Assembly (NCBI GenBank): GCA_965227295.1
Contig: OZ245742.1
Span: 4,544,001 to 4,608,000, forward strand
Length of the DNA: 64,000 nt
Origin: Leptonemataceae bacterium
GTDB taxonomy: Bacteria; Spirochaetota; Leptospiria; Leptospirales; Leptonemataceae
Direction: 5' to 3'
Shown here: piece after piece, positions 1,747 to 17,803 of the stretch
Position numbering within the stretch: position 1 is the stretch's first letter
How the letters are laid out: every line of letters starts with the position of its first letter
The notes under the pieces: model-generated
What the model was told of the DNA's origin: nothing
The model's input: the letters and a program-made list of their open reading frames with translations, nothing else
The model's database searches: none
Made by a program: the position numbers and the translations under genes

Positions 1747-2329
1747 ATTTGTGGCCACAAAGGCGGAGCATTTGTCGAGGCGCGTGGTGCGGTCGGCGGG
1801 AGTTTACCATGGTAAAATCTTTGGCTGACCCGGGCGTGGATCTCGTACCGGTACGGGGCGTGGGGTTGTGGTGGCCTCGCGCTACGCGCGAGTCTTCGAA
1901 GGTAGGTCCGCGGAAATCAGCCTGCCGGCGAGCGCCGCGCGCCTCGACAAATGCGTGGGGCGTGTGGCCACAGAGAACGGACGCGATCAGCGGAGCGATC
2001 ACGGAAAGAACTCACGGAAAGAACTCACGGAAAGAGGGCAAACATCACATGAGATATTGTTAGAGATTAAAGCACCAGGTGCCGCTGAAATCGAGTCCAC
2101 CTGGCAAGAACCCAACTGGATTATATATACGTCAATCGCGGCGACCAAAGACGTCCACGCTAACATATCTCGGCCGAACTCTAACCCCCGCCGCCCAGGT
2201 CGTGTCGTTTTTCTGGACAATCAAGGGAGTTCGAATTTCACGGCCAGCGCCGAGATCCCGCCGCGCACATCGTCGGTAATGCATCTGTGTATTTTGTGTG
2301 CGACGTCACGAAACCGCCGTACATAAATA

Positions 2330-2373
2330 GCGCGTGCAGGCGAAAACCCACCGGGTCTTCGCCTGCACGCGCG
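2330..2373. terminator. Strong GC hairpin after the three-gene arm operon (mirror copy near 7980-8022)
   Basis: GCGCGTGCAGGCGAA...TTCGCCTGCACGCGC, directly after the stop codon. Confidence 0.65.
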
Positions 2374-2379
2374 CGAACG

Positions 2380-2712
2380 TCACCAGCTCCAGCCGATTTC
2401 CTTTAACTGCTCCTTTTCTTCGGCTACGTCTTCTAACAGGTGGTCGGCGATCCGTTGCCAGTCCACTTTTTCGATGGCCCCCTGGAGTAACTCGCGCAAC
2501 AGTTCGGGAAGTTCGAGCCTGTGCAGATACTCCCGGTGACGATCTCTCAAGTGCGTGGCGAGTTGTTCTTCCTCGCCGTCACGAACACAATCGCAGGCAA
2601 TGCCCATAAACAAATCGTTGGTCGCCGTGTCTTTGTACATGCGCTCAGACACACACCACGTTTCGTAGTTGCCCCAACCGCAATAGTATTCGTTACTCCT
2701 TCCAGCCGTCAT
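2380..2712 (-). CDS. Phage/plasmid-type hypothetical protein (YxGWxNYETW motif), left-arm copy
   Basis: 110 aa with YCGWGNYETW and VDWQRIADHL motifs typical of small phage/plasmid proteins. Confidence 0.65.
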   Translation of the reverse strand: MTAGRSNEYYCGWGNYETWCVSERMYKDTATNDLFMGIACDCVRDGEEEQLATHLRDRHREYLHRLELPELLRELLQGAIEKVDWQRIADHLLEDVAEEKEQLKEIGWSW

Positions 2713-2896
2713 CGCAGAGGACCTTCTCCGGCTCTTTGCCGATCAATTCCCGGAGCGGCGGACGCTTACGCAGGTCCGCCGCAATGAGATTGCGAATGTG
2801 CTGTGCCGTGTTCGCGAAGCGCGTGCGCAATTCGTAGCGCATGTCTTCGCTGATGCCGACCAGATACTGAACTGATTTTCTTCCCGGGTCTTTCAT
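2693..2896 (-). CDS. Small protein, possibly ribbon-helix-helix DNA-binding, left-arm copy
   Basis: MKDPGRKSVQYLVGISEDMRYELRTRFANTAQHIRNLIAADL; ATGA overlap with the upstream stop; AGGAGG SD. Confidence 0.55.
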   Translation of the reverse strand: MKDPGRKSVQYLVGISEDMRYELRTRFANTAQHIRNLIAADLRKRPPLRELIGKEPEKVLCDDGWKE

Positions 2897-3366
2897 GCTT
2901 CGGCCTCCTGGTCCAGGTCGTCGAAGAGCGGGTAGAAACGAGTGCTTTTCGGCGCTCCCAGGTAACACGCGCGGCGGAGTTCCTGGTCCCACTCGCAAGC
3001 GACCTGTTGAAGTTCGAGAAACACTTCTCGATTTACTTTTAAGAGGGAATTCAGCCGGGACGGCTGCGGTACCTTCACCGGGGTGTAGACCTCTTTGAAT
3101 TCACCGGTAGTTTCACTGGCGAGCAGAAACGGAAACCACTCATTGTCCGCCGTGATTTCGAACTGCATTTCGCGAGCGCACAGCCAGCGGCCGTTTGCTT
3201 GCTTGATGAACTGCGAAACGCCCAGGGCGGGGCGAGCGGTTGGACCCTCTCCCAGAAACTCGATGACGAGCAGCGGGTATTCTTCGTGCTCCACGCGGAT
3301 GGACTCGCACTGCTTGAGCGCTTCCATGCCTTCGTGACTGACGATGATTTTCTGAATTGTTTCCAT
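2893..3366 (-). CDS. Hypothetical mobile-element protein (DUF6908-like), left-arm copy
   Basis: 157 aa, GGAGG Shine-Dalgarno, LVIEFLGEGP...EMQFEI pattern; identical to 6986-7459. Confidence 0.7.
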   Translation of the reverse strand: METIQKIIVSHEGMEALKQCESIRVEHEEYPLLVIEFLGEGPTARPALGVSQFIKQANGRWLCAREMQFEITADNEWFPFLLASETTGEFKEVYTPVKVPQPSRLNSLLKVNREVFLELQQVACEWDQELRRACYLGAPKSTRFYPLFDDLDQEAEA

Positions 3367-3527
3367 GTGATAGATTCCTCCGGGGGAAGGCTAAACACAC
3401 GGCGGCATACTGCAAGTTTAAACTCAAGGAAAGTTAATTTTTTGCTGACAAAAGCCCGGAGACATGCTAACATCACGAAATGTTACTCTAGTAAATGTCG
3501 ATGCACGAGGTCGCCCGCTTCTCTCTT

Positions 3528-3600
3528 TCAGGGGTGCGGGATTCGAACCCACTTCCCGGGGGACACAGTCCCGGATGTTAGCCGCATACACCAACCCCTA
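3528..3600 (-). tRNA. tRNA-His(GTG), atypical (no G-1/C73)
   Basis: Cloverleaf with anticodon loop CTGTGTC and GGTTCGAATCC T-arm. Confidence 0.75.
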
Positions 3601-3605
3601 TTGAA

Positions 3606-3679
3606 AATCCCGGCGAGGACTCGAACCCCGATCGACGGGGATAGAAGCCCCGTGCTTTTTCCCGTTAAGCTACCGGGAT
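3606..3679 (-). tRNA. tRNA-Arg(TCT)
   Basis: Anticodon arm CGGGG-CTTCTAT-CCCCG; T-loop TTCGAGT. Confidence 0.85.
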
Positions 3680-3682
3680 ACT

Positions 3683-3755
3683 TCGAAGCGGCTGGAATCG
3701 AACCAACACCAACGGCATATCAGAGCGTCGTTCTCAACCGTTAAACTACGCTTCG
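3683..3755 (-). tRNA. tRNA-Ile(GAT)
   Basis: Loop CTGATAT; acceptor CGAAGCG/CGCTTCG; one mismatch in the anticodon stem. Confidence 0.8.
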
Positions 3756-3759
3756 TATG

Positions 3760-3830
3760 CACCACGTAGGGGAGTCGAACCCCTGCTACTCGATCGACAA
3801 TCGGGCGTTCTACCGTTAAACTAATGCGGC
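3760..3830 (-). tRNA. tRNA-Asp(GTC)
   Basis: Loop TTGTCGA; T-loop TTCGACT; G discriminator. Confidence 0.8.
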
Positions 3831-3836
3831 AAACTG

Positions 3837-3910
3837 TAGGGCCCGCGGGACTCGAACCCGCAATCTCCAGATTCGTAATCTGATGCCTTGATCCATTTGG
3901 CCAGGGCCCT
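3837..3910 (-). tRNA. tRNA-Arg(ACG)
   Basis: TCAGA-TTACGAA-TCTGG arm. Confidence 0.88.
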
Positions 3911-3913
3911 GTG

Positions 3914-3987
3914 TTGGACTTGCAGGACTCGAACCTGCGGCCTTCCGCCTCGGAAGCGGGTGCTCTTTCCCTCTGAGCTAAAGTCCA
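3914..3987 (-). tRNA. tRNA-Arg(CCG)
   Basis: CCGC-TTCCGAG-GCGG arm. Confidence 0.85.
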
Positions 3988-3990
3988 GTG

Positions 3991-4061
3991 TGGAGCCGGT
4001 GGGAATCGAACCCACATCTGTTGCTTGCAAAACAAAGATTCTCCCGTTAAACTACGGCCCC
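3991..4061 (-). tRNA. tRNA-Ala(TGC)
   Basis: Loop TTTGCAA; G3:U70 alanine identity pair present. Confidence 0.85.
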
Positions 4062-4064
4062 GTG

Positions 4065-4138
4065 TACGGGCTGCTGGATTCGAACCAGCGATCTCCTGTT
4101 TGTAAGACAGGCGTTCTGACCTGCTAAACTAAGCCCGT
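4065..4138 (-). tRNA. tRNA-Val(TAC)
   Basis: CCTGT-CTTACAA-ACAGG arm. Confidence 0.9.
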
Positions 4139-4141
4139 GTG

Positions 4142-4213
4142 TTGCGGCGAAAGGAATTGAACCTCCGTAGGACGGGTTATGAGCCCGTTGCATCGCCACT
4201 ATGCTACACCGCA
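4142..4213 (-). tRNA. tRNA-Met(CAT), initiator-like
   Basis: ACGGG-CTCATAA-CCCGT with three consecutive G-C pairs; weak U1-A72 pair. Confidence 0.8.
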
Positions 4214-4219
4214 ATGTTT

Positions 4220-4294
4220 TGCCCGGTGCATGGATTCGAACCTGCAACCAGCGGTTTACAAAACCGCCGCTCTAACCATTGGAGCTAACCGGGC
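4220..4294 (-). tRNA. tRNA-Thr(TGT)
   Basis: GCGGT-TTTGTAA-ACCGC arm. Confidence 0.9.
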
Positions 4295-4297
4295 GTG

Positions 4298-4369
4298 TGC
4301 ATCAGCAGGGAATCGAACCCTGATGATCTGCTTGGAAGACAGACATGTTGGCCGTTACATCACTGATGC
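4298..4369 (-). tRNA. tRNA-Gly(TCC)
   Basis: TCTGT-CTTCCAA-GCAGA arm. Confidence 0.88.
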
Positions 4370-4373
4370 GTAT

Positions 4374-4447
4374 TCGTCGGGTTCGGGATCGAACCGAATT
4401 CTCTCGCTTTTCAGGCGAGCGCTCATGACCACACCTGCTCCCCGACG
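4374..4447 (-). tRNA. tRNA-Phe(GAA)
   Basis: CTCGC-CTGAAAA-GCGAG arm; weak D-arm. Confidence 0.8.
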
Positions 4448-4504
4448 TTCGTCTTGTTCTTCTTAAAGTCACTTTCGCTCATATTTACTCCTTAGTGCGA
4501 AATG

Positions 4505-4576
4505 TGGGTCCGGTGGGATTCGAACCCACGGCCATCCGATTAAAAGTCGGATGCTCTACCCCCGAGCTCCGGACCC
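4505..4576 (-). tRNA. tRNA-Lys(TTT)
   Basis: TCCGA-CTTTTAA-TCGGA arm. Confidence 0.9.
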
Positions 4577-4641
4577 GCTATTCTCTAAATGTCTTCTTGT
4601 CATCTTCGCTCTTCATGGCGTATCTCCTGTTGCTTATGATG

Positions 4642-4714
4642 TGCACCGCAAGAGACTCGAACTCTTCCCTGCTGCATGGCACACAGCTATGCTTGCCACT
4701 AACACCAGCGATGC
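4642..4714 (-). tRNA. tRNA-Gly(GCC)
   Basis: GCTGT-GTGCCAT-GCAGC arm. Confidence 0.8.
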
Positions 4715-4723
4715 GTTTAAACG

Positions 4724-4757
4724 AAAAAACCCTCCAGGGAGTCGGCCGGGGAGGGTT
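4724..4757 (-). terminator. Attenuator terminator of tRNA block 4
   Basis: AACCCTCC...GGAGGGTT followed by TTTT on the minus strand, directly before tRNA-Gly. Confidence 0.85.
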
Positions 4758-4784
4758 CTTCATGAATGCGTTTGCAGATTCTTC

Positions 4785-4901
4785 TCAGCAACGCATGCGC
4801 AGAACTCCTCCGGCGATCCGGCCGTCCTTATGGCCCGCATCGATCCGCATCCCGATAAATCGGGCGGTTCTCACAACCGTTGCTGTTACTGTTAAGCTCA
4901 T
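4785..4901 (-). CDS. Leader peptide of block 4, MSLTVTATVVRTARFIGMRIDAGHKDGRIAGGVLRMRC
   Basis: Codons 4-33 use only the 11 amino acids of the downstream tRNAs. Only synonymous changes in copy B (13977-14093). Confidence 0.85.
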   Translation of the reverse strand: MSLTVTATVVRTARFIGMRIDAGHKDGRIAGGVLRMRC

Positions 4902-4951
4902 GATAGAATACTCAGACGAATCCCTTGTTAAATTTCTTATAAAAATATCTT

Positions 4952-5023
4952 TGCCGACGCAGGGAATCGAAACCTGATTACCGCAGTGAAAGTGCGAGGT
5001 CCTTGCCTTTAGACGACGCCGGC
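4952..5023 (-). tRNA. tRNA-Glu(TTC)
   Basis: Loop CTTTCAC; T-stem imperfect in copy A and intact in copy B. Confidence 0.8.
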
Positions 5024-5119
5024 GATTTGAGTTGAAACGTAGTTAGGTCCACGTTCCCGTTCTCGCGGCATCGCTCCAGCTGACACGTATGTACGTCCTG
5101 CGCGGTTCATTATACTATG

Positions 5120-5190
5120 AGACATGGGTGGGATTCGAACCCACGTAAACGGCTTTGCAGACCGCCCGCTGGCCTCTCGCGCACCATGTC
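5120..5190 (-). tRNA. tRNA-Cys(GCA)
   Basis: GCGGT-CTGCAAA-GCCGT arm; U discriminator. Confidence 0.88.
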
Positions 5191-5285
5191 GGGTTTACTC
5201 TGGCTTGCGGCGGTCGGTAACATCGTTCTCTGTCTTCCATATCTCCCTCATAACACTTGAAAAATAAGCAAAATGCCCATAAACG

Positions 5286-5319
5286 AAAAAAGGCGAGCCG
5301 TTGATCCGGGCTCGCCTTT
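5286..5319 (-). terminator. Attenuator terminator of tRNA block 3
   Basis: AAAGGCGAGCC...GGCTCGCCTTTTTT. Confidence 0.88.
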
Positions 5320-5343
5320 CGCATCCAGCAGGTTACACTGAAT

Positions 5344-5451
5344 CTAAGACGAGCGCATGACTCCCTGAAACACATCACGCTCACAACCCGCATGAATCAT
5401 GCCGGCCTTCGCGAGGTCTCGTTCCGTTCTATGTTGGCGCTTCGGCGACAT
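5344..5451 (-). CDS. Leader peptide of block 3, MSPKRQHRTERDLAKAGMIHAGCERDVFQGVMRSS (alternative start 5400)
   Basis: Adjacent Cys-Glu codons; the stop overlaps GCTCGTCTT, which complements the terminator 5' arm; frame conserved in copy B (13375-13482). Confidence 0.65.
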   Translation of the reverse strand: MSPKRQHRTERDLAKAGMIHAGCERDVFQGVMRSS

Positions 5452-5531
5452 TCCGTTTCCTGAATACTTACTTGGTATTCGACGTCAACAACTTCATAAA
5501 GATTTAAATATTTTTTTCATGGAACTCAATG

Positions 5532-5604
5532 TTCCGGGAGATGGATTCGAACCATCAACCCCCGACTTCAAAGGCCGGTGTTCTACCCGTTGAACTACCC
5601 CGGA
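5532..5604 (-). tRNA. tRNA-Gln(TTG)
   Basis: CCGGC-CTTTGAA-GTCGG arm. Confidence 0.88.
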
Positions 5605-5612
5605 ATGAGTTG

Positions 5613-5684
5613 CACCGGAGGCAGGACTCGAACCTGCATAGAACGCATTAACATTGCGTCGCCTTACCATTAGGCTACTCCGGT
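5613..5684 (-). tRNA. tRNA-Asn(GTT)
   Basis: ACGCA-ATGTTAA-TGCGT arm. Confidence 0.88.
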
Positions 5685-5688
5685 ATTC

Positions 5689-5766
5689 TGGCAGAGGGAA
5701 CAGGATTCGAACCTGTGAACATCGGATTTGGAGTCCGACAGCTTGGACCGCTCGACTCATCCCTCT
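5689..5766 (-). tRNA. tRNA-Trp(CCA), with encoded 3' CCA
   Basis: TCGGA-CTCCAAA-TCCGA arm. Confidence 0.88.
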
Positions 5767-5769
5767 ATG

Positions 5770-5842
5770 TCGGCGTGGTGGGACTTGAACCCACGACCCC
5801 CGGTTCCCGAAACCGGTGCTCTACACCCTGAGCTATACGCCG
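5770..5842 (-). tRNA. tRNA-Pro(CGG)
   Basis: CCGGT-TTCGGGA-ACCGG arm; C1-G72, A73. Confidence 0.9.
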
Positions 5843-5845
5843 GAT

Positions 5846-5882
5846 AATAAAAAACCCCCTCAAGCTTCCGCCGGAGGGGGTT
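5846..5882 (-). terminator. Attenuator terminator of tRNA block 2
   Basis: AACCCCCTC...GAGGGGGTTTTTTATT. Confidence 0.88.
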
Positions 5883-5911
5883 CTCGCGCAAACGCGCTGT
5901 TGCTCAGAGCA

Positions 5912-5983
5912 CTACACGACCACCTCCAGGCAGATGCCGGGATTCTGTTGGGGCCAGTTGCTCTGTGGGAAAAACATGCTCAT
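5912..5983 (-). CDS. Leader peptide of block 2, MSMFFPQSNWPQQNPGICLEVVV
   Basis: PQSNWPQQNP control run matches the Pro/Trp/Asn/Gln tRNAs. Copy B (12689-12754) is 6 nt shorter at the 5' end with the frame preserved. Confidence 0.88.
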   Translation of the reverse strand: MSMFFPQSNWPQQNPGICLEVVV

Positions 5984-6087
5984 CACGTTTACCTGAAGTT
6001 AAGAGACGACGGTTTTCGAGAAATCCTTAACGAAAATATATTTTTTGGAACGAAAGCTTCGCTTTGCCTCGTCTCATCTACCGTATC

Positions 6088-6156
6088 ATGAACGGTATGT
6101 TACTATCATCGCTGTATCTTCTCAGCTCCGGCGGCATGCGGGAGGCGGCGATGTAG
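6088..6156 (+). CDS. Leader peptide of block 1, MNGMLLSSLYLLSSGGMREAAM (alternative start 6097)
   Basis: Ten consecutive Leu/Ser/Tyr codons, all different; identical in copy B (12516-12584, minus strand). Confidence 0.9.
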   Translation: MNGMLLSSLYLLSSGGMREAAM

Positions 6157-6184
6157 TACGCGCAGACAGTTTTCTGTCTTCGAG

Positions 6185-6224
6185 AAGCCCCTCCCGGTGA
6201 ACCCGCGAGGGGCTTTTTGTTTTT
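6185..6224 (+). terminator. Attenuator terminator of tRNA block 1
   Basis: AAGCCCCTC...GAGGGGCTT followed by TTTGTTTTT. Confidence 0.88.
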
Positions 6225-6228
6225 AAAC

Positions 6229-6315
6229 GCGCTGCTTTCCTCCTGCCGGTCTGTAAAGCCGGGGTCGTTAAACGAGGAGGTCGGGAGACGAGAGGTTCAA
6301 ATCCTCGGCAGCGCA
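6229..6315 (+). tRNA. tRNA-Tyr(GTA)-like RNA lacking a normal D-arm
   Basis: Acceptor GCGCTGCT/GGCAGCGC; arm CCGGT-CTGTAAA-GCCGG; T-arm GAGG-TTCAAAT-CCTC. Confidence 0.65.
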
Positions 6316-6319
6316 TACT

Positions 6320-6403
6320 GGATAGATGCCCGAGTGGTAAGGGACCCGTTTCGAAAACGGAGGTCGGCGGTTCGTCGCGTGGGTTCGATTCCTACTCTAT
6401 CCG
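6320..6403 (+). tRNA. tRNA-Ser(CGA)
   Basis: Loop TTCGAAA, long variable arm, G73. Confidence 0.88.
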
Positions 6404-6409
6404 CATTAC

Positions 6410-6493
6410 GGAGGGATGACCGAGTGGTAAGGTATCCGGTTGGAAGCCGGTGGTCATCGATGAGATGCGAAGGTTCGATTCCTTCTCCCTCCG
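6410..6493 (+). tRNA. tRNA-Ser(GGA)
   Basis: Loop TTGGAAG, long variable arm, G73. Confidence 0.88.
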
Positions 6494-6499
6494 AGAAAT

Positions 6500-6584
6500 G
6501 GAACAGTGGCCGAGAGGTAAGGCAGCGGTCCGCTAAACCGTGGTCGTCGTAACAGACGCGGAGGTTCGATTCCTCCCTGTTCCG
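6500..6584 (+). tRNA. tRNA-Ser(GCT)
   Basis: GCGGT-CCGCTAA-ACCGT arm (C33), long variable arm. Confidence 0.85.
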
Positions 6585-6587
6585 CAG

Positions 6588-6662
6588 CGAGCGATAGCCC
6601 AATCAGGCAGAGGCAGTCGACTTAAAATCGGCAGAGTGCGGGTTCGATTCCCGCTCGCTCAA
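6588..6662 (+). tRNA. tRNA-Leu(TAA), short variable loop
   Basis: GTCGA-CTTAAAA-TCGGC arm. Confidence 0.82.
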
Positions 6663-6665
6663 AAC

Positions 6666-6738
6666 GCATCCGTAGCCCAACGGTAGAGGCACCAGGTCGA
6701 GAGCCTGGTCAGTGCAGGTTCGAATCCGGCCGGATGCA
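6666..6738 (+). tRNA. tRNA-Leu(GAG), short variable loop
   Basis: CCAGG-TCGAGAG-CCTGG arm (C33). Confidence 0.75.
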
Positions 6739-6741
6739 CAC

Positions 6742-6814
6742 GGGGACGTAGCCCAACGGCAGAGGCAGCACGCTCAGAACGTGTCCAGTGTGAGTTCGAA
6801 TCTCGCCGCCCCCA
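6742..6814 (+). tRNA. tRNA-Leu(CAG), short variable loop
   Basis: GCACG-CTCAGAA-CGTGT arm. Confidence 0.82.
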
Positions 6815-6985
6815 TAGAGTCTCCACTGAAGAGATTTGCGACCTCGTGCATCGACATTTACTAGAGTAACATTTCGTGATGTTAGCATGTCTCCGGGCTT
6901 TTGTCAGCAAAAAATTAACTTTCCTTGAGTTTAAACTTGCAGTATGCCGCCGTGTGTTTAGCCTTCCCCCGGAGGAATCTATCAC

Positions 6986-7459
6986 ATGGAAACAATTCAG
7001 AAAATCATCGTCAGTCACGAAGGCATGGAAGCGCTCAAGCAGTGCGAGTCCATCCGCGTGGAGCACGAAGAATACCCGCTGCTCGTCATCGAGTTTCTGG
7101 GAGAGGGTCCAACCGCTCGCCCCGCCCTGGGCGTTTCGCAGTTCATCAAGCAAGCAAACGGCCGCTGGCTGTGCGCTCGCGAAATGCAGTTCGAAATCAC
7201 GGCGGACAATGAGTGGTTTCCGTTTCTGCTCGCCAGTGAAACTACCGGTGAATTCAAAGAGGTCTACACCCCGGTGAAGGTACCGCAGCCGTCCCGGCTG
7301 AATTCCCTCTTAAAAGTAAATCGAGAAGTGTTTCTCGAACTTCAACAGGTCGCTTGCGAGTGGGACCAGGAACTCCGCCGCGCGTGTTACCTGGGAGCGC
7401 CGAAAAGCACTCGTTTCTACCCGCTCTTCGACGACCTGGACCAGGAGGCCGAAGCATGA
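6986..7459 (+). CDS. Hypothetical protein (DUF6908-like), right-arm copy
   Basis: Identical to 2893-3366. Confidence 0.7.
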   Translation: METIQKIIVSHEGMEALKQCESIRVEHEEYPLLVIEFLGEGPTARPALGVSQFIKQANGRWLCAREMQFEITADNEWFPFLLASETTGEFKEVYTPVKVPQPSRLNSLLKVNREVFLELQQVACEWDQELRRACYLGAPKSTRFYPLFDDLDQEAEA

Positions 7460-7659
7460 AAGACCCGGGAAGAAAATCAGTTCAGTATCTGGTCGGCATC
7501 AGCGAAGACATGCGCTACGAATTGCGCACGCGCTTCGCGAACACGGCACAGCACATTCGCAATCTCATTGCGGCGGACCTGCGTAAGCGTCCGCCGCTCC
7601 GGGAATTGATCGGCAAAGAGCCGGAGAAGGTCCTCTGCGATGACGGCTGGAAGGAGTAA
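7456..7659 (+). CDS. Small putative RHH DNA-binding protein, right-arm copy
   Basis: ATGA coupling to the upstream gene; AGGAGG SD. Confidence 0.55.
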   Translation: MKDPGRKSVQYLVGISEDMRYELRTRFANTAQHIRNLIAADLRKRPPLRELIGKEPEKVLCDDGWKE

Positions 7660-7972
7660 CGAATACTATTGCGGTTGGGGCAACTACGAAACGTGGTGTG
7701 TGTCTGAGCGCATGTACAAAGACACGGCGACCAACGATTTGTTTATGGGCATTGCCTGCGATTGTGTTCGTGACGGCGAGGAAGAACAACTCGCCACGCA
7801 CTTGAGAGATCGTCACCGGGAGTATCTGCACAGGCTCGAACTTCCCGAACTGTTGCGCGAGTTACTCCAGGGGGCCATCGAAAAAGTGGACTGGCAACGG
7901 ATCGCCGACCACCTGTTAGAAGACGTAGCCGAAGAAAAGGAGCAGTTAAAGGAAATCGGCTGGAGCTGGTGA
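7640..7972 (+). CDS. Phage/plasmid-type hypothetical protein, right-arm copy
   Basis: Identical to 2380-2712. Confidence 0.65.
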   Translation: MTAGRSNEYYCGWGNYETWCVSERMYKDTATNDLFMGIACDCVRDGEEEQLATHLRDRHREYLHRLELPELLRELLQGAIEKVDWQRIADHLLEDVAEEKEQLKEIGWSW

Positions 7973-8316
7973 CGTTCGCGCGCGTGCAGGCGAAGACCCG
8001 GTGGGTTTTCGCCTGCACGCGCTATTTATGTACGGCGGTTTCGTGACGTCGCACACAAAATACACAGATGCATTACCGACGATGTGCGCGGCGGGATCTC
8101 GGCGCTGGCCGTGAAATTCGAACTCCCTTGATTGTCCAGAAAAACGACACGACCTGGGCGGCGGGGGTTAGAGTTCGGCCGAGATATGTTAGCGTGGACG
8201 TCTTTGGTCGCCGCGATTGACGTATATATAATCCAGTTGGGTTCTTGCCAGGTGGACTCGATTTCAGCGGCACCTGGTGCTTTAATCTCTAACAATATCT
8301 CATGTGATGTTTGCCC

Positions 8317-9328
8317 TCTTTCCGTGAGTTCTTTCCGTGAGTTCTTTCCGTGAGTTCTTTCCGTGAGTTCTTTCCGTGAGTTCTTTCCGTGAGTTCTTTC
8401 CGTGAGTTCTTTCCGTGAGTTCTTTCCGTGAGTTCTTTCCGTGAGTTCTTTCCGTGAGTTCTTTCCGTGAGTTCTTTCCGTGAGTTCTTTCCGTGAGTTC
8501 TTTCCGTGAGTTCTTTCCGTGAGTTCTTTCCGTGAGTTCTTTCCGTGAGTTCTTTCCGTGAGTTCTTTCCGTGAGTTCTTTCCGTGAGTTCTTTCCGTGA
8601 GTTCTTTCCGTGAGTTCTTTCCGTGAGTTCTTTCCGTGAGTTCTTTCCGTGAGTTCTTTCCGTGAGTTCTTTCCGTGAGTTCTTTCCGTGAGTTCTTTCC
8701 GTGAGTTCTTTCCGTGAGTTCTTTCCGTGAGTTCTTTCCGTGAGTTCTTTCCGTGAGTTCTTTCCGTGAGTTCTTTCCGTGAGTTCTTTCCGTGAGTTCT
8801 TTCCGTGAGTTCTTTCCGTGAGTTCTTTCCGTGAGTTCTTTCCGTGAGTTCTTTCCGTGAGTTCTTTCCGTGAGTTCTTTCCGTGAGTTCTTTCCGTGAG
8901 TTCTTTCCGTGAGTTCTTTCCGTGAGTTCTTTCCGTGAGTTCTTTCCGTGAGTTCTTTCCGTGAGTTCTTTCCGTGAGTTCTTTCCGTGAGTTCTTTCCG
9001 TGAGTTCTTTCCGTGAGTTCTTTCCGTGAGTTCTTTCCGTGAGTTCTTTCCGTGAGTTCTTTCCGTGAGTTCTTTCCGTGAGTTCTTTCCGTGAGTTCTT
9101 TCCGTGAGTTCTTTCCGTGAGTTCTTTCCGTGAGTTCTTTCCGTGAGTTCTTTCCGTGAGTTCTTTCCGTGAGTTCTTTCCGTGAGTTCTTTCCGTGAGT
9201 TCTTTCCGTGAGTTCTTTCCGTGAGTTCTTTCCGTGAGTTCTTTCCGTGAGTTCTTTCCGTGAGTTCTTTCCGTGAGTTCTTTCCGTGAGTTCTTTCCGT
9301 GAGTTCTTTCCGTGAGTTCTTTCCGTGA
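8317..9328. repeat. Perfect 13-bp tandem repeat (TCTTTCCGTGAGT), ~78 copies
   Basis: 1012 bp of invariant units; the mirror site 1999-2035 has ~2.8 units. Confidence 0.97.
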
Positions 9329-9356: not shown

Positions 9357-11340
9357 GTCGCGGTAGAACGGCCGGTTGCCCGGCCGCCCCCGCACAGATC
9401 CCGGCGTGCGGTATTCTCGCACCGGGCTCTTCGAAAGCACTCGCTTCCACATAAAGTCAATTCAGAGTAAGTCGCAACTGAGATACTGGTCGTTCCATGA
9501 TGCGCGGTTTTTCGATCCGGTAGTGCGCCATCAGATCCCTCAGCCCCTGCCAGTCCAGACTCCGGCGCTGACTGCGCCGATTGAGCCACTTGTACAGATT
9601 CATTTCCACCTGATAGTAGAAGCTTCGTATACTCTTGTAGTTGCATTGGACGCCATAATAGTTATAGTATCCACGCAGCCGGGAGTTCAGAAGATTGAAG
9701 AACCTGCGCATGGGTAGATGCCGATTCGCTTTAATCCACTGCTTCACATTCTGGATCGACGCATGCAATCGCTTTGGAGCGGTGCGACGCGGAACCCACC
9801 AGAACCCCTTTCGAGAACGAGCCCAGCGGTATTCAAAGCCTAGAAATACGAACGCCTCACGCCCGGTATTGAACTTCGCGCGGAAGCCCGGGCGCTCGAA
9901 ACTTTTCACTCCTGACTTTTCCGGCGCCAGTTCCAGACCAAACTTTCGCAAACGTTTTCCAAGCGTCGCATAGAATTTCAGCGCATCGTCTTTGGATTCA
10001 AAGGCGCAAACAAAATCGTCCGCGTATCGACACATATAGGCCGGTCTCTTGCAGTGCTTCTTCACCACTTTCTCGAACCAGAGGTCCAGTACGTAATGAA
10101 GATAGACGTTCGCCAGAACCGGACTGATCACGCCGCCTTGAGGAGTCCCAGCGGTCGGGCGCGAGACCTGACCGTTTACCTCCAGCACGCCTGCTTTCAG
10201 CCACTTGCGAATCAGACCGAGAAAGGCCCGATCATCGATTCGTTGCTCCAGCATTCGCATCAACCAATCATGGTCAATGTTGTCGAAGAAACCCTTGATG
10301 TCGGCTTCCACAATCCAGCCGAGCTTCCCCGGACTCAAAGTTGAACTCAGAGTCTTCGAAGCCTCACGCGGACCGGTGTTCGGCCGATAACCATACGAAC
10401 ACGACAGGAAGTCTTGCTCATAGATCGCTTCAAGGATACGCGTCGCGCATGTTTGTACCAGTTTGTCTTCGAGGGCCGGCAATCCAAGCGGACGTTGTTT
10501 TCCGTCCGCTTTCGGGATAAAGACCCTGCGAATCAGTTTTGTTCGGTATCGTTTCTGTTTTAAGCGTTCCACCAGATCCCCGACATTTTCCGTAAGGTTC
10601 GCTTCGTAGTCGCGAAACGTTTCACGGTCCACGCCCGGAGCCGCCCGGCGATTCATTCCTGCGAACGAATCTTCGAGATTCATCTGGTTGAGCATCCCAT
10701 ACAGATTACGAAACAGATGTTTCTTACTCCTCCTCGCTTTATTTGCTATTGCCCGTAGTGAGGTTTGCATCAGTTGTTCCGATCCTGCCGTCCGGCTGAT
10801 GTTGACTCTGCGAGCTGCGTACTTTCGTCAGCCCCTTCCCCGATCATCGCGCATCGCACGCGAAGACCGAACCCGTCGAAACTCCATTCGAGTTTCATTC
10901 GATTCTGTGGACGGCTCTCCCGCCCTCTGAGTACTATGGGCTGATCCGACTCCCCGTTGATCATCATTCTTCCTTGTTCATTCGGTCAGAATTACCTTCG
11001 CTATCGTCGAAGGAACCAACGGGGTCTCCCGGGTTCCACGATGTTTCTCTGCATACATGCCGCGCTCAAGCGACCCCGACAGACCTCCAGAATCTCGCTA
11101 AAACGATTCCTTTGTGCTGGTTTCCATCTGACCAATGATGTCACCGTCTGCATCTATGGCATTTTACGAGGCTCAACAGCTTCCGGGAGTGTGGACTCCC
11201 CTACGGCCTGCATGCTTCCCTGTGTACGCTTCGTGTGGCGGTTACCCGCTTCCACGCAACACTCGGTAGAAGTTGTTCGCTAAACTTTACTTCATATGGA
11301 CTTTCACCTTATCAGAAACATCGGGCTTTGCCCGGCGCAC
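9357..11340 (-). mobile_element. Group II intron (~1984 nt), probably bacterial class E
   Basis: 5' GTGCG at 11340; domain V/VI GAGCCCGGTGCGAGAATACCGCACGCCGGGATCTGTGCGGGGGCGG...CTACCGCGAC; the exons rejoin to the intact left-arm site at 1970/1971. Confidence 0.93.
9457..10770 (-). CDS. ltrA: Group II intron reverse transcriptase/maturase without endonuclease domain
   Basis: RPLGLP, SYGYRP, DIKGFFD, GTPQGG and YADD motifs, followed by maturase domain X. Confidence 0.95.
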   Translation of the reverse strand: MQTSLRAIANKARRSKKHLFRNLYGMLNQMNLEDSFAGMNRRAAPGVDRETFRDYEANLTENVGDLVERLKQKRYRTKLIRRVFIPKADGKQRPLGLPALEDKLVQTCATRILEAIYEQDFLSCSYGYRPNTGPREASKTLSSTLSPGKLGWIVEADIKGFFDNIDHDWLMRMLEQRIDDRAFLGLIRKWLKAGVLEVNGQVSRPTAGTPQGGVISPVLANVYLHYVLDLWFEKVVKKHCKRPAYMCRYADDFVCAFESKDDALKFYATLGKRLRKFGLELAPEKSGVKSFERPGFRAKFNTGREAFVFLGFEYRWARSRKGFWWVPRRTAPKRLHASIQNVKQWIKANRHLPMRRFFNLLNSRLRGYYNYYGVQCNYKSIRSFYYQVEMNLYKWLNRRSQRRSLDWQGLRDLMAHYRIEKPRIMERPVSQLRLTLN

Positions 11341-11822: not shown

Positions 11823-12443
11823 TGGGGACGGTGAGACTCGAACTCACACTAGACACGTTCTGAGCGTGCTGCCTCTACCGCGAATGTAAGCAGTTGCTCC
11901 CGGGTGGTCGCAACTGCGGCGGTTCAGACTGCTTCGCAGTCTGGGCTACGGATGCGTTTCGAGCGAGCGGGAATCGAACCCGCACTCTGCCGATTTTAAG
12001 TCGACTGCCTCTGCCTGATTGGGCTATCGCTCGCTGCGGAACAGGGAGGAATCGAACCTCCGCGTCTGTTACGACGACCACGGTTTAGCGGACCGCTGCC
12101 TTACCTCTCGGCCACTGTTCCAATTTCCGGAGGGAGAAGGAATCGAACCTTCGCGCCTGTTAAGACGACCGCCGGCTTCCAACCGGATACCTTACCACTC
12201 GGTCATCCCTCCACGCTGCGGATAGAGTAGGAATCGAACCCACGCGACGAACCGCCGACCTCCGTTTTCGAAACGGGTCCCTTACCACTCGGGCATCTAT
12301 CCAGTATGCGCTGCCGAGGATTTGAACCTCTCGTCACCCGACCTCCTCGTTTAACGAGTAAACTGTACCTTGCTGCGCAAGCCTTGACTTACTACCGCCT
12401 TTCAGTTGCTGGCGTTTACAGACCGGCAGGAGGAAAGCAGCGC
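11823..12443 (-). tRNA. Array B block 1: Tyr-like (insertion), Ser CGA, Ser GGA, Ser GCT, Leu TAA, chimeric Leu GAG/CAG (insertion)
   Basis: Homologous to 6229-6814 in inverted orientation; leader at 12516-12584 and terminator retained. Confidence 0.88.
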
Positions 12444-12823
12444 GTTTAAAAAGAAAAAGCCCCTCGCGGGTTTACCGGGAGGGGCTTCTCGAAGACAGAG
12501 AACTGTCCGCGCGTACTACATCGCCGCCTCCCGCATGCCGCCGGAGCTGAGAAGATACAGCGATGATAGTAACATACCGTTCATGATACGGTACATGAGA
12601 CGAGGCAAAGCGAAGCTTTCGTTCCAAAAAATATATTTTCGTTAAGAATTTCTCGAAAACCGTCGTCTCTTAACTTCAGGTAAACGTGATGCACTTCCCA
12701 CAGAGCAACTGGCCCCAACAGAATCCCGGCATCTGCCTGGAGGTGGTCGTGTAGTGCTCTGAGCAACAGCGCGTTTGCGCGAGAACCCCCTCCGGCGGAA
12801 GCTTGAGGGGGTTTTTTATTATC

Positions 12824-13294
12824 CGGCGTGTAGCTCAGGGTGTAGAGCACCGGTATCGGGAACCGGGGGTCGTGGGTTCAAGTCCCACCACGCCGACATA
12901 GAGGGATGAGTCGAGCGGTCCAGGCTGTCGGACTCCAAATCCGATGTTCACAGGTTTTTGTGCATGGATGCACTTATGCCGCGGAGGACAGGAAGTCCGG
13001 GAGCGGCCGAATCCTGAAAGAGGAAGATGCTACGCATCTTTCATCTTACTGACGCGCTGCGCTTGTCCCTCTGCCAGAATACCGGAGTAGCCTAATGGTA
13101 AGGCGACGCACTGTTAATGCGTTCTATGCAGGTTCGAGTCCTGCCTCCGGTGCAACTCATTCCGGGGTAGTTCAACGGGTAGAACACCGGCCTTTGAAGT
13201 CGGGGGCGCAAATAGACTTTTGCCTTATGGCAAAAGTCGGCGGTTCGGAGTTGTGCGGCAACGCACAACTCCGGGTCCTCACCATCTCCCGGAG
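12824..13294 (+). tRNA. Array B block 2: Pro CGG, Trp CCA (two insertions), Asn GTT, Gln TTG (T-arm replaced by an insertion)
   Basis: Homologous to 5532-5842; leader at 12689-12754 and terminator retained. Confidence 0.88.
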
Positions 13295-13635
13295 CATTGA
13301 GTTCTATGAAAAAAATATTTAAATCTTTATGAAGTTGTTGACGTCGAATACCGAGTAAGTAATCAGGAAACGGAATGTCGCAGAAGCGCCTACAGACAAC
13401 GGAACGAGACCTCGCGAAGGCCGGCATGATTCATGCGGGTTGTGAGCGTGATGTGTTTCAGGGAGTCATGCGCTCGTCTTAGATTCAGTGTAACCTGCTG
13501 GATGCGAAAGGCGAGCCCGGATCAACGGCTCGCCTTTTTTCGTTTATGGGCATTTTGCTTATTTTTCAAGTGTTATGAGGGAGATATGGAAGACAGAGAA
13601 CGATGTTACCGACCGCCGCAAGCCAGAGTAAACCC

Positions 13636-13926
13636 GACATGGTGCGCGAGAGGCCAGCGGGCGGTCTGCAAAGCCGTTTAACGTGGGTTTGTGTGCAGGG
13701 ATGCACTTATGCCGCGAAGGACAGGATGTCCGGGAGCGGCCGAATCCCACCCATGTCTCATAGTACAATGAACCGCGCAGGACGTACATATGTATCAGCC
13801 GGAGCGATGCCGCGAGAGCGGGAACGTGGATCAAGCTACGTTTCAACTCAAATCGCCGGCGTCGTCTAACGGCAAGGACGCTGCACTTTCACTGCGGTAA
13901 TCGGGGTTCGATTCCCCGCGTCGGCA
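13636..13926 (+). tRNA. Array B block 3: Cys GCA (51-nt insertion), Glu TTC
   Basis: Homologous to 4952-5190; leader at 13375-13482 and terminator retained. Confidence 0.88.
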
Positions 13927-14163
13927 AAGGTATTTTCATAAGAAATTTAACAATGGATTCGTCTGAGTATTCTATCATGAGCTTAACAGTAACAGCAACG
14001 GTTGTAAGGACCGCCCGATTTATCGGGATGCGGATCGATGCGGGCCATAAGGACGGCCGGATCGCCGGAGGAGTTCTGCGCATGCGTTGCTGAGAAGAAT
14101 CTACAGACGCATTCATGAAGAACCCTCCCCGGCCGACGCCCTGGAGGGTTTTTTCGTTTATAC

Positions 14164-15529
14164 GCATCGCTGGTGTCAGTGGCAAGCATAGCTGTGTGCC
14201 ATGCAGCAGGGAAGAGTTCGAGTCTCTTGCGGTGCACATTACAGAAAACAGGAGGTACGCCATGAAGAGCGAAGATGACAAGAAGACGTTTAGAGAATAG
14301 CGGGTCCGGAGCTCGGGGGTAGAGCATCCGACTTTTAATCGGATGGCGATCGGTTGAGTGCTTCGCACTCTCATCTTACTCCCGCCTTTCAGTTGGGGGT
14401 TCGAATCCCACCGGACCCACATTTCAAGTAGCGAGGTTAATATGAACGAAAGTGACTTTAAGAATAATAAGACGGAACGTCGGGGAGCAGGTGTGGTCAT
14501 TGCATCCGGTTGAAGCCCGGAGGAATTCGGTTCGATCCCGAGCCCGACGAATACGCATCAGTGATGTAACGGTCAACATGTCTGTCTTCCAAACAGATCA
14601 TCAGGGTTTTTGGCCATGGATGGCCTTATGCCGCGGAGGACAGGAGGTCCGAGAGCGGCCGATTCCCTGCTGATGCACACGCCCGGTTAGCTCCAATGGT
14701 TAGAGCGGCGGTTTTGTGAACCGCTGGTTGCAGGTTCGAATCCGTGCACCGGGCAAAACATTGCGGTGTAGCATAGTGGCGATGCAGCGGGCTCATAACC
14801 CGTCCTACGGAGGTTCAATTCCTTCCGCCGCAACATACGGGCTTAGGACGCAATATAAACGCCTGTCTTACAAACAGGAGATCGCTGGTTTTTGTGCATG
14901 GATGCACTTATGCCGCGGAGGCCAGGAGGGCCGAGAGCGGCCGAATCCGGCAGCCCGTACATGGGGCCGTAGTTTAACGGGAGAATCTTTGTTTTGCAAA
15001 CAAGGGACGTCGGTTCGATTCCGACCGGTTCCACAAATTGGACTTTAGCTCAGAGGGACAGAGCGCCCGTTTCCGAAGCGGTAGGCCGCAGGTTTTTGGC
15101 CACGGATGGCCTTATGCCGCGAAGGACAGGAGGTCCGAGAGCGGCCGAGTCCTGCAAGTCCAACACAGGGCCCTGGCCAAATGGATCAAGGCATCAGATT
15201 ACGAATCTGAAGATTGCGGGTTCGAGTCCCGCGGGCTCTACATGCCGCGTTAGTTTAATGGTAGAACTCCTGATTGTCTCTCAGGGGGCGAGGGTTCGAT
15301 TCCCTCACGTGGTGCATACGAAGCGTAGTTTAACGGTTGAGAACGACGGTCTGATATGCCGTTGGTTAAAGACGAAGATTCAGCGTTATGCGTGAACGCA
15401 TAACGCTGGGTTCGATTCCAGCCGCTTCGAAGCATCCCGGTAATCGGGATTTTCATAAGGGGTTGGTGTATGTGGCTAACATCCGGGATTGTGTCTCCCG
15501 GGCAGTGGGTTCGAATCCCGCACCCCTGA
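14164..15529 (+). tRNA. Array B block 4: Gly GCC, Lys*, Phe, Gly TCC*, Thr, Met, Val*, Ala, Arg CCG*, Arg ACG, Asp, Ile*, (Arg TCT internally deleted), His; * = insertion
   Basis: Homologous to 3528-4714; leader at 13977-14093 and terminator retained. Confidence 0.88.
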
Positions 15530-15542
15530 AAGAGAGAAGCGG

Positions 15543-16549: not shown

Positions 16550-17803
16550 CAGGCTGCTGAAAAAGTCATTCGAAAGCGGAATCTGTGAAATTCATTTGGG
16601 CGTTGCGCCCGGCCGGGCCGCACACAAGTCGCGGTCGTAGCGACTTGTGAACCCGACGAGGCGCAAGGCGCGTCGCTCCATTCCGCCGACCGGGCGCCGG
16701 GCTGCTCCGGGCTCCGCGTTCGCTTCGGTCCTCCGTGCTTCGCACTCCGGACTGCCGCTGCGCGGCACCCTGCACATCCCTAACGCTTGTATTTCGCAAG
16801 TTAGCATTCGCGATCATGCTGCTGCCTCCTGTAGGTTTCTGATTCGCAGCAAGTTGTAGACGGCAACAGCGAAACGGAAAATCCATTGAGCGGTGCGGTG
16901 ATCGACGGCACTGGAGCGGCTCTTCTGTGCGATGTGCGGCACAATCCGGTTCGCTTTAAGTTCTTCTACGAAAGCTTTAGTATCGTAGCCTTTGTCGGCG
17001 CCCGGAGTGATGCGGCGGCGATCTTTGCTTCGGCGTAGTTCCTTCATGAAGATGGCTGCCGCATCGCGTTCCGCCGTTCCGGTCGCGTGTGTCACGCCGG
17101 CCATCACGGCGAGGCCGTGACGATTTTCCATAAGGACATGCCCCATATACACCAGCCGGGCCTCTTTGCCGTTGCCTTTGCGAAACAGCTTCGCATCCGG
17201 ATCGGTAGTGGATTCGTGCGTATCGTTGCGGCGTTTTTCACCGTGAAAACTTACGGACGGATTGCCCGGGTCACAGGCTCGCTGCGGCTTCCAGCAACGT
17301 GGCATCCACGGTGAAATGTTCGTCGCTGATCAGCCCGCGATCATCCGCCACTTCCAGAACGCCGCGAAAGAATTCGTCGGCGATGCCGCCTTCCATCAGA
17401 CGGTCGCGATTCTTTGAAGAGACGCTCGCATCCCAGACGGGATCGTCGGCGCTCAACCCGATGAACCAACGATACAGCAGATTGTAGTTCGTTTGCTCCA
17501 TCAACTGACGTTCGCTGCGGACGCTGAACAACACTTGCAGCAACAGAGCGCGCAACAGGTACTCCGGCGGAATCGAGGGCCACCCGAAAGCCGGATACAT
17601 TTCATCAAATCGATCGCTAAGATTCGCGAGGACCGCATCCGTCAACTTGCGAATGTCACGCAACGGATGGTTGGCCGGAATCCGGTCCTCCATCGAAACG
17701 TGACTCCAGATACTCGGTTGCTTTTCTTCTTCGCCGCGCATGCGACGAAATCTGAACAAGCACCGCTAAATCGCCAGGAGATTTCGACTTTTTCAGCAGC
17801 CTG
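16550..17803 (-). mobile_element. IS5-family insertion sequence with a disrupted transposase
   Basis: 18-bp terminal IR CAGGCTGCTGAAAAAGTC / GACTTTTTCAGCAGCCTG; CTAT direct repeat on both flanks. Confidence 0.9.
16814..17741 (-). pseudogene. IS5-family transposase, frameshifted and C-terminally deleted
   Basis: Two frames: IPANHPLR...SVRSERQL...HFTVDAT and HESTTDPDA...ADKGYD. Confidence 0.85.

Follow-up and report, generated by a model that had tools for sequence, protein, structure and literature searches.

What switches on the genes of a horizontally spread transfer RNA (tRNA) array? The control and purpose of such arrays are largely open, and the sole case studied, in Anabaena, involves a promoter repressor and translational stress. 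The question is raised by a 64,000-nucleotide (nt) stretch of a Leptonemataceae bacterium (positions 4,544,001–4,608,000, forward strand, of contig OZ245742.1 in assembly GCA_965227295.1; hereafter the window), in which a short open reading frame (ORF) rich in Leu, Ser and Tyr codons, followed by an intrinsic terminator, lies directly ahead of Tyr-like, Ser and Leu tRNA genes. With a probability that we put at roughly 0.7, this element is a ribosome-mediated transcription attenuator gating a sub-operon of spare tRNA genes, the Leu/Ser/Tyr module. An earlier note on this DNA had proposed that the leader and terminator control these downstream genes, and the present analysis supports that proposal.

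The window contains 41 tRNA genes, as called by ARAGORN, in two inverted copies of one array. Block 1 is a divergent pair: 20 tRNA genes run leftward, from Pro (5842) to His (3528), and six called genes, three Ser and three Leu, run rightward at 6320–6814. The two arms are separated by a 390-nt spacer, inside which the Leu/Ser/Tyr leader element is found. The 26 genes called in 3528–6814 form the high-density supernumerary set that defines an L-type array (Santamaria-Gomez et al. 2021, PMC8421152), and the array also bears signs of horizontal spread and tRNAs related to those in arrays of other phyla. Its GC content is 0.52–0.55, against 0.58–0.65 across the remaining window, and among these signs are also the nearby group II intron and transposase. 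According to ARAGORN and Rfam, the genes behind the terminator are tRNA genes only, with none for biosynthesis, transport or tRNA synthetases. A genome scan with a pattern taken from the unusual short Leu tRNAs of the array (the Leu-Leu D-arm pattern) returned at least 120 stretches, and a Leptospirales metagenome-assembled genome, L037, which carries a homologous array, is the only close homologue among the matches listed. The parts of the element are the following.

6088–6156, forward strand: leader ORF of 22 codons plus TAG, MNGMLLSSLYLLSSGGMREAAM; L037 has an ORF of the same length and frame at 9391–9459, and the block 2 copy is identical.
6100–6129, forward strand: control run of ten Leu/Ser/Tyr codons, which is also the 5' strand (region 1) of the 1:2 helix, as defined by sequence, folding and shuffles.
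6139–6158, forward strand: region 2, in which GGAG (6141–6144) pairs with CUCC (6126–6129), and 6145–6158 with 6101–6115, in free RNA.
6140–6149 with 6187–6195, forward strand: alternative pairing of region 2, the antiterminator, predicted by masked folding.
6164–6179, forward strand: small hairpin between the leader stop codon and the terminator; in L037 the sequence differs and the hairpin is kept.
6181–6224, forward strand: intrinsic terminator (hairpin 6181–6219 and T-run 6214–6224; −25.9 kcal/mol), with stems identical in L037.
6229–6314, forward strand: Tyr(GTA)-like tRNA-like gene without a D-arm, the first after the terminator, with a conserved structure.
6320–6814, forward strand: regulated tRNA genes Ser(CGA), Ser(GGA), Ser(GCT), Leu(TAA), Leu(GAG) and Leu(CAG), found by ARAGORN and the Rfam tRNA model.
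12459–12596, reverse strand: block 2 copy of the Leu/Ser/Tyr leader and terminator, with an identical leader ORF.

The leader starts at ATG 6088–6090, ends at TAG 6154–6156 and reads ATG AAC GGT ATG TTA CTA TCA TCG CTG TAT CTT CTC AGC TCC GGC GGC ATG CGG GAG GCG GCG ATG TAG. The ten consecutive Leu/Ser/Tyr codons, none of them repeated, that the earlier note had seen are indeed present at 6100–6129. Such a run is uncommon: the six frames of the window contain three runs of at least eight Leu/Ser/Tyr residues, two of which are the two copies of the leader (the third is at 10722–10751), and a run of ten or more arose in 3 of 200 composition-preserving shuffles. The region 6060–6235 folds at −71.2 kcal/mol (z = −4.00), and none of 200 shuffles was equally stable. 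The 5' arm of the terminator contains CCUCCC, the partner of region 2. As the terminator ends (6224) only 5 nt ahead of the Tyr(GTA)-like RNA gene, the tRNA genes behind it can be made only by read-through.

The element is conserved in L037, which is 82.4% identical to the window over 233 nt and 78.8% identical over 765 nt from the leader on, with tRNA genes at 75–83%. The L037 leader, MNGKLLSSLSLYGSSNMREVAM, keeps the start, stop and length of the ORF, the terminator stems and the GGGAGG/CCUCCC pair. Its control codons are TTA CTA TCA TCG CTA TCA CTT TAT GGC TCC AGC; 10 of these 11 residues are Leu, Ser or Tyr, and the changes consist of Tyr to Ser, Leu to Tyr, and a Ser/Gly swap. Between the two sequences, 4 of 47 predicted pairs are changed on both sides, among them a G-C to A-U double change in the 1:2 helix (alignment columns 61–93) and two pairs of the middle hairpin. 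Searches with 3400–7000 by blastn gave single-tRNA matches in 37 plasmid records (best coverage 4%) and 121 phage records (best coverage 5%), none of them to the leader.

The consequences of ribosome position were modelled by folding the nascent transcript before the 3' arm of the terminator exists, with 30 nt masked as the ribosome. When the A site is at codon 5, 8, 11 or 14, the minimum free energy fold pairs GGGAGG(C)GGC of 6140–6149 with GCC-CCUCCC of 6187–6195, whereas a ribosome at the stop codon covers 6140–6149 and the antiterminator pairing is gone. The free RNA forms the 1:2 helix, with both of its segments, and the terminator. The outcome is the same for the L037 leader. The pairing of CGGGAGG (6139–6145) with CCTCCCG (6190–6196), which the earlier note had pointed out at the right coordinates, thus corresponds to the antiterminator found by masked folding in both sequences.

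Anatomy and folding together suggest the following logic. Transcription would start from a putative promoter in the 5987–6087 spacer, and the 22-codon leader would be made first. If its ten Leu/Ser/Tyr codons were read quickly, the ribosome would reach the stop codon and cover 6140–6149, the terminator would form and the tRNA genes would stay silent. If no ribosome were loaded, region 1 (6101–6129) would pair with region 2 (6139–6158), again leaving the terminator to form. A ribosome stalled within the Leu/Ser/Tyr run would instead leave region 2 free to capture CCUCCC before the terminator 3' arm is synthesised, and this antiterminator would let RNA polymerase read through into the Tyr-like gene, the three Ser genes and the three Leu genes. 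What the element would sense is difficulty in decoding Leu, Ser and Tyr codons, and what it would deliver is more tRNA of these three kinds. Since a tRNA product cannot relieve an amino-acid shortage, tRNA availability is the logical signal, and with tRNAs rather than biosynthetic enzymes as the output it is reasonable to think that the element senses decoding capacity.

The Leu/Ser/Tyr leader is not the only one in the array. Further units of the same layout precede other groups of tRNA genes.

5912–5986, reverse strand: divergent second (left) leader ORF, MMSMFFPQSNWPQQNPGICLEVVV, with the L037 homologue MIRYSLQSFWPQNNLSSGNTREVVV.
5848–5896, reverse strand: terminator of the second leader, 6–12 nt ahead of tRNA-Pro(CGG), which is followed by Trp, Asn and Gln.
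12689–12811, forward strand: block 2 copy of the Pro/Trp/Asn/Gln leader (MHFPQSNWPQQNPGICLEVVV) and its terminator.
4785–4901, reverse strand: third leader ORF, MSLTVTATVVRTARFIGMRIDAGHKDGRIAGGVLRMRC, in which 33 of the 37 residues after the start match the amino acids of 14 downstream tRNAs.
4730–4781, reverse strand: terminator of the third leader, 15 nt ahead of Gly(GCC).
5292–5451, reverse strand: weaker unit, with ORF MSPKRQHRTERDLAKAGMIHAGCERDVFQGVMRSS (5451–5344) and a terminator (5343–5292) before Cys and Glu.

The segment FFPQSNWPQQNP of the second leader matches the downstream Pro, Trp, Asn and Gln, and its L037 counterpart precedes the same four tRNAs and shows a compensatory change in its 1:2 helix; between blocks 2 and 1 this leader differs by an in-frame 6-nt indel. 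The third leader is rich in Thr, Val, Ala, Arg, Phe, Ile, Gly, Met, Asp, His and Lys, exactly the identities of the genes that follow it (Gly, Lys, Phe, Gly, Thr, Met, Val, Ala, Arg, Arg, Asp, Ile, Arg, His, in this order). The weaker Cys/Glu unit matches its own tRNA set poorly (score 1.17). Masked folding of the second and third leaders gives the same stall and stop logic as in the Leu/Ser/Tyr leader.

The array also contains short ORFs of another kind, with strong ribosome-binding sites (AGGAGA, AAGGAG, GAGGGAGA), which begin 40–60 nt before single tRNA genes on the reverse strand (4616–4578, from 4482 and from 5240 in the window; 7480–7730 in L037). One of them, MKSEDDKKTFRE, stops 2 nt ahead of tRNA-Lys; another, MSESDFKK.., overlaps into tRNA-Phe, and a further one into tRNA-Cys. 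Their L037 counterparts are VKNESDKVS before Lys and MSESDFRK.. before Phe.

The match between leaders and tRNAs extends beyond this array. A script that searches the 200 nt before each tRNA gene for a stable hairpin and T-run, and the 100 nt before the hairpin for the end of an ORF, was applied to 82 sources; 40 of 119 scan loci, only ~420–700 nt long, fell outside this leader examination. Terminator units numbered 53 in 38 of the 82 sources (49 after removal of overlaps, 45 of them with an ORF), and the leaders form 29 families. Summed over these, the fit between each leader and its own tRNA set scores 74.11; permuted sets give 43.67 ± 4.5, and none of 5000 reached the observed score. When the window and L037 are removed, the sum is 48.54 against 33.67 ± 3.25 over 21 families (0 of 10,000). 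The amino-acid-family match between leader and downstream tRNAs is therefore well supported.

Individual cases come from several lineages. A Thermoanaerobaculia leader (L005) with ..LLRSSSYLSL.. precedes Ser, Leu, Leu, Leu and Ser, a Tepidisphaeraceae leader (L079) with ..LSSSLRLRLLSLSS.. precedes Leu and Ser tRNAs, and an Actinophytocola leader (L055) with ..MRMQQLLLL.. and a GGAGGA ribosome-binding site precedes Leu, Leu, Gln, Gln and Met. In Tepidisphaerales, a leader rich in Arg, His, Asp, Ser and Leu stands before exactly those tRNAs. The Lentzea leader MLAKAQLAGWRILALIAGGLLALAWGSTP lies before a cluster of Trp, Gly, Leu, Leu, Ala, Ile and Val tRNAs. A 29-codon version (MLAKAQLAGWRILAL..AWGSTP), with a GGAGGA site and a terminator, is common to twelve Lentzea genomes (L011, L016, L020, L023, L026, L064, L065, L070, L071, L076, L078 and L081); in 11 of these loci GGAGGA is found 7 nt ahead of the ATG, the ORF is gap-free, and the variable columns number 12 at third, 8 at first and 3 at second codon positions. 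Because the Lentzea leader precedes a small tRNA cluster, the design is not confined to long arrays. Beyond Leptospirales, it occurs before tRNA clusters in Actinomycetota, Planctomycetota and Acidobacteriota.

Several observations weigh against an attenuator. Neither the start of translation nor that of transcription is well marked: ahead of ATG 6088 there is no sequence resembling a Shine–Dalgarno site (L037 has only AAGG), whereas a nearby real gene does have GGAGGA (6970s); TTG 6064 and ATG 6097 are alternative starts; and a consensus promoter scan found no site above threshold in 5987–6087, the consensus matches in L037 being ambiguous or overlapping the leader ATG. The structural evidence is computational throughout. 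Once the RNA is full-length, the terminator greatly exceeds the antiterminator in stability, so that the switch must be kinetic, as is usual for attenuators, and in the second and third leaders the untranslated nascent RNA already favours the antiterminator. With one close homologue among the matches listed, a small number of changes underlies the covariation, and none of them affects the antiterminator pair, which is the same in the window and L037. As regards the survey, its sample came from the stretches, at least 120, that the Leu-Leu pattern returned, the own tRNA set ranked first in just 10 of the 29 families, many units have no match, and the four cyanobacterial arrays in the sample have no terminator unit (0 of 4).

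These weaknesses leave room for rival accounts, and the first is a control without translation, in which the hairpin would simply terminate or insulate divergent transcription units, or act as a T-box-like sensor made of RNA alone, with the ORF being incidental or encoding a small hydrophobic peptide with its own function. The weak or absent ribosome-binding site and the unrecognised promoter would fit it, as would the resemblance of some leaders, such as that of Lentzea, to membrane helices. The length, start and stop of the ORF are nevertheless kept at ~80% DNA identity, the indels of the left leader are in frame, and polar leaders (Pro/Gln/Asn/Trp; Arg/His/Asp/Ser/Leu; Met/Gln/Leu) fit polar tRNA sets. 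Read-through, moreover, is obligatory with a terminator 5 nt before the tRNA genes, and Rfam matched no T-box at the gathering threshold, or in 5840–6330 at E values up to 10. This account is very improbable. Other Rfam cis-regulators (PyrR, rnk leader) gave sub-threshold, chance-level matches of 16–18 bits where 54–55 are needed, and were discarded. A generic sensor of translation stress is improbable too, if somewhat less so. Comparable to erm-, bmrCD- and vmlR-type leaders, it would read through whenever the leader is slowed, by antibiotics or ribosome damage, and the Leu/Ser/Tyr content would be secondary. Masked folding accords with this, as a stall anywhere in codons 5–14 yields the antiterminator, and the Anabaena L-array is induced more than 100-fold by chemically unrelated ribosome inhibitors (PMC8421152). 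However, a generic sensor would not need leaders that fit the identities of their own tRNAs far better than permuted sets, so this match counts against it, as does the presence within a single array of several leaders of differing amino-acid content, one per sub-operon.

A further rival is the reading that the earlier note had favoured, namely a sensor of isoacceptors in which the leader samples one codon per tRNA species and the loss of any single species opens the terminator. The window leader by itself is suggestive. Ten distinct codons out of ten have P = 0.026 if synonyms are chosen uniformly and P = 0.002 if they follow the codon usage of the window, taken as host usage, and a Thermoanaerobaculia leader (L005) likewise uses nine different codons for its nine Leu/Ser/Tyr residues. 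The earlier observation that every downstream anticodon has a cognate codon holds for all six called genes and for the Tyr-like one, but this coverage is unremarkable alone (P = 0.18 under local codon usage), and the cognate codons number 7 of 9 informative ones against 7.5 expected. Nor is the rule that no codon is repeated conserved: the L037 leader repeats CTA and TCA and has 8 of 10 distinct codons (P = 0.58), and over 14 leaders diversity is at expectation (131 distinct codons against 131–134). L037 covers 4 of 5 downstream anticodons, since it lacks CTG and CTC and Leu(CAG) thus has no cognate codon.

Across the wider set of leaders, coverage speaks more in favour of this reading. Codon tests were restricted to leaders whose amino-acid match scored 2.9 or more, and the coverage test, which holds the peptide sequence and local codon usage fixed, was run on 13 leaders from several lineages, leaving out L060 and its long, non-leader-like ORF. 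These leaders cover 74 of 77 downstream anticodons, against 66.9 ± 2.3 expected (0 of 2000 simulations). In the seven lineages besides the window and L037 the count is 33 of 33 against 28.3 expected (2 of 2000), and for the window and L037 together it is 41 of 44 against 38.6 (259 of 2000). A general enrichment of cognate codons was considered and dropped: a cruder base-composition null had hinted at it (149 against 136.3; 29 of 2000), but under the local codon-usage null the count is 132 against 132.5. The three Pro codons of the left leader (CCA, CCC, CCC) are not cognate to the array's sole Pro tRNA, CGG (0 of 3).

Other constraints act on the same codons. The first four control codons are the same in the window and L037 and lie inside the 1:2 helix formed with the 3' end of the ORF, and together with the compensatory G-C to A-U change this indicates that RNA pairing constrains codon choice, which ties the codons in 6100–6115 to the helix. 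The run is also biased toward host-rare codons (CTA 1.8%, TCA 4.7%, TTA 6.1% and CTT 6.4% of their families), and its third codon positions have a GC content of 0.5, compared with 0.92 elsewhere in the leader and 0.76 in the host. For CTA and TCA, neither the window array nor the L037 array has a Leu(TAG) or Ser(TGA) gene; the expectation that homologous arrays would hold them fails in L037 (0 of 25 tRNAs), and more distant arrays do have both. Sensing at the level of single isoacceptors therefore seems unlikely as the account of the window leader, for which a finer match to individual tRNA species is possible, while the coverage across the class suggests that species-level sampling may be a property of these leaders in general.

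The products of the module are unusual themselves. The Tyr-like RNA is called neither by ARAGORN nor by the Rfam tRNA model, and its score against tRNA-Sec (21.6 bits) is under the gathering score of that family. Homologues are found at L037 9532–9618, L059 10160–10247, L030 10092–10182, L033 2121–2212 and L046 3678–3767, and they share its GUA anticodon loop, anticodon stem, acceptor stem and T-arm. In place of the D-arm there is a 6-bp helix that runs from the D-stem position to the variable region. The alignment of six sequences has 24 pairs, 10 of them with compensatory changes, which indicates that the gene is a real structured RNA. The Leu tRNAs of the array (TAA, GAG and CAG; 6588–6814 and 11959–12033) are 73–75 nt long, lacking the long variable arm that bacterial tRNA-Leu has. 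The D-arm that they carry (TAGCCCAA..GGYAGAGGC), seen also in L001, L002 and the scan loci, recurs in actinobacterial plasmid arrays, and the pattern occurs in at least 120 contigs from many phyla. The D-arm of the Ser tRNAs was also tried as a search key and rejected, as the M. alvei plasmid array has not conserved it; inspection by eye of the region upstream of that array showed no obvious leader with a T-run terminator.

The surroundings of the array are rich in repeats and mobile elements. Block 1 is flanked by a 1516-nt inverted repeat with 100% identity (1999–3514 and 6838–8353), which could be an invertible segment or an assembly effect. Each arm contains an identical DUF6908 gene (2893–3366, reverse strand; 6986–7459, forward strand), and a search of 5.8 billion proteins found just three relatives, all on the window's own 5.94 Mb contig. 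A 13-nt tandem unit, in ~80–90 copies, extends from 8161 to ~9400 and yields a spurious 474-residue ORF. Between the blocks there is a group II intron (9457–11304, reverse strand), with an Rfam D1-D4 match of 130.7 bits and a reverse transcriptase/maturase ORF, and a DDE transposase fragment is found at 16814–17305. Block 2 (11959–15530) is a decaying copy of the array: it lacks several tRNA genes, its Tyr-like gene has a 50-nt insertion, two of its Rfam tRNA matches are stretched to 112–118 nt (14302–14419 and 15319–15430), and its tRNA genes are interspersed with five copies of a 109-nt repeat (12926–15172). In the divergent spacer of block 1, AACGAAA occurs twice, 20 nt apart (6029–6035 and 6049–6055), around an AT-rich TATATT centre; if the direct repeats at the promoter of the Anabaena trn operon are a guide, this pair may be an operator.

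Leader-peptide attenuators are classically known from biosynthetic operons, with trpL, hisL, leuL and pheL as examples and thrL and the ilv leaders as multi-amino-acid forms; in the leu leader, rare CUA codons play a role. The Leu/Ser/Tyr element resembles these systems in its short ORF, cluster of regulatory codons, 1:2 helix, terminator and predicted control by ribosome position, as well as in an antiterminator that borrows the 5' arm of the terminator and in the host-rare codons of the control run. It differs in that the regulated genes are tRNAs and not enzymes, in that three amino acids are combined in its control run, and as many as eleven in a sister leader of the array, and in that several units are chained within one array. 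T-box riboswitches also sense tRNA status and control a terminator before translation-related genes, but they bind uncharged tRNA directly and are ORF-free, whereas the sensor here would be a conserved ORF with in-frame indels.

Two published systems come near. In Streptomyces lividans, leader peptides are described upstream of the synthetase genes leuS, trpS, alaS and thrS, and LeuL2, the leader of leuS, is reported to have a hairpin and a U-run behind it (PMC8079986). They likewise apply attenuation to genes of the translation apparatus, though each deals with one amino acid and a single synthetase gene, whereas the leaders described here combine several amino acids and precede tRNA genes. 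The trn operon of Anabaena sp. PCC 7120 is an L-array with direct repeats over the −10 box and transcription start of its promoter and a presumed repressor (PMC8421152), named TrcR in PMC10272220. Like the present array, it is a horizontally spread supernumerary set; it is silent by default and induced on impaired translation, as the present array would be. Its control is at the promoter by a repressor, and that of the present array would reside in a leader peptide with its terminator, one such pair per sub-operon. PMC8421152 nowhere uses leader, attenuat- or terminator, and the survey PMC4758250 makes no mention of terminator. A full-text search of open-access PubMed Central and bioRxiv found no paper on leader-peptide attenuation of tRNA arrays or operons. 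That leaders mirroring the identity, and perhaps the individual species, of the downstream tRNAs constitute a widespread and undescribed regulation, both of tRNA arrays that have spread horizontally and of small clusters of tRNA genes, with cases in Leptospirales, Planctomycetota, Acidobacteriota and Actinomycetota, is a proposal that we put forward tentatively, with somewhat more doubt than confidence.

On that proposal, these arrays would be self-triggering, modular sets of spare tRNAs, in which a module is turned on when the host tRNAs for its codons are lost. A leader that spells out the identities of the tRNAs behind it provides a direct logic for this, the module being switched on by the failure to decode its own codons. 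A possible cause of such loss is cleavage by the tRNA-cutting nucleases of phage-defence or toxin systems, and recent papers call tRNA arrays putative anti-defence systems (PMC12803027). The Leu/Ser/Tyr module would then be a spare set for the tRNAs with long variable arms, and the rebuilt Leu tRNAs, 73–75 nt long and without that arm, together with the Tyr-like RNA without a D-arm, might escape nucleases that cut in the variable arm. A spare set of rebuilt long-arm-type tRNAs is plausible, and its link to the nucleases is speculation. The signature of leader and terminator is simple enough to serve in the bioinformatic recognition of regulated tRNA clusters, and the leaders would be compact natural sensors of the decoding capacity for defined codon sets. 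Such units would connect classical attenuation with tRNA supply and possibly with the arms race around tRNA-cutting nucleases.

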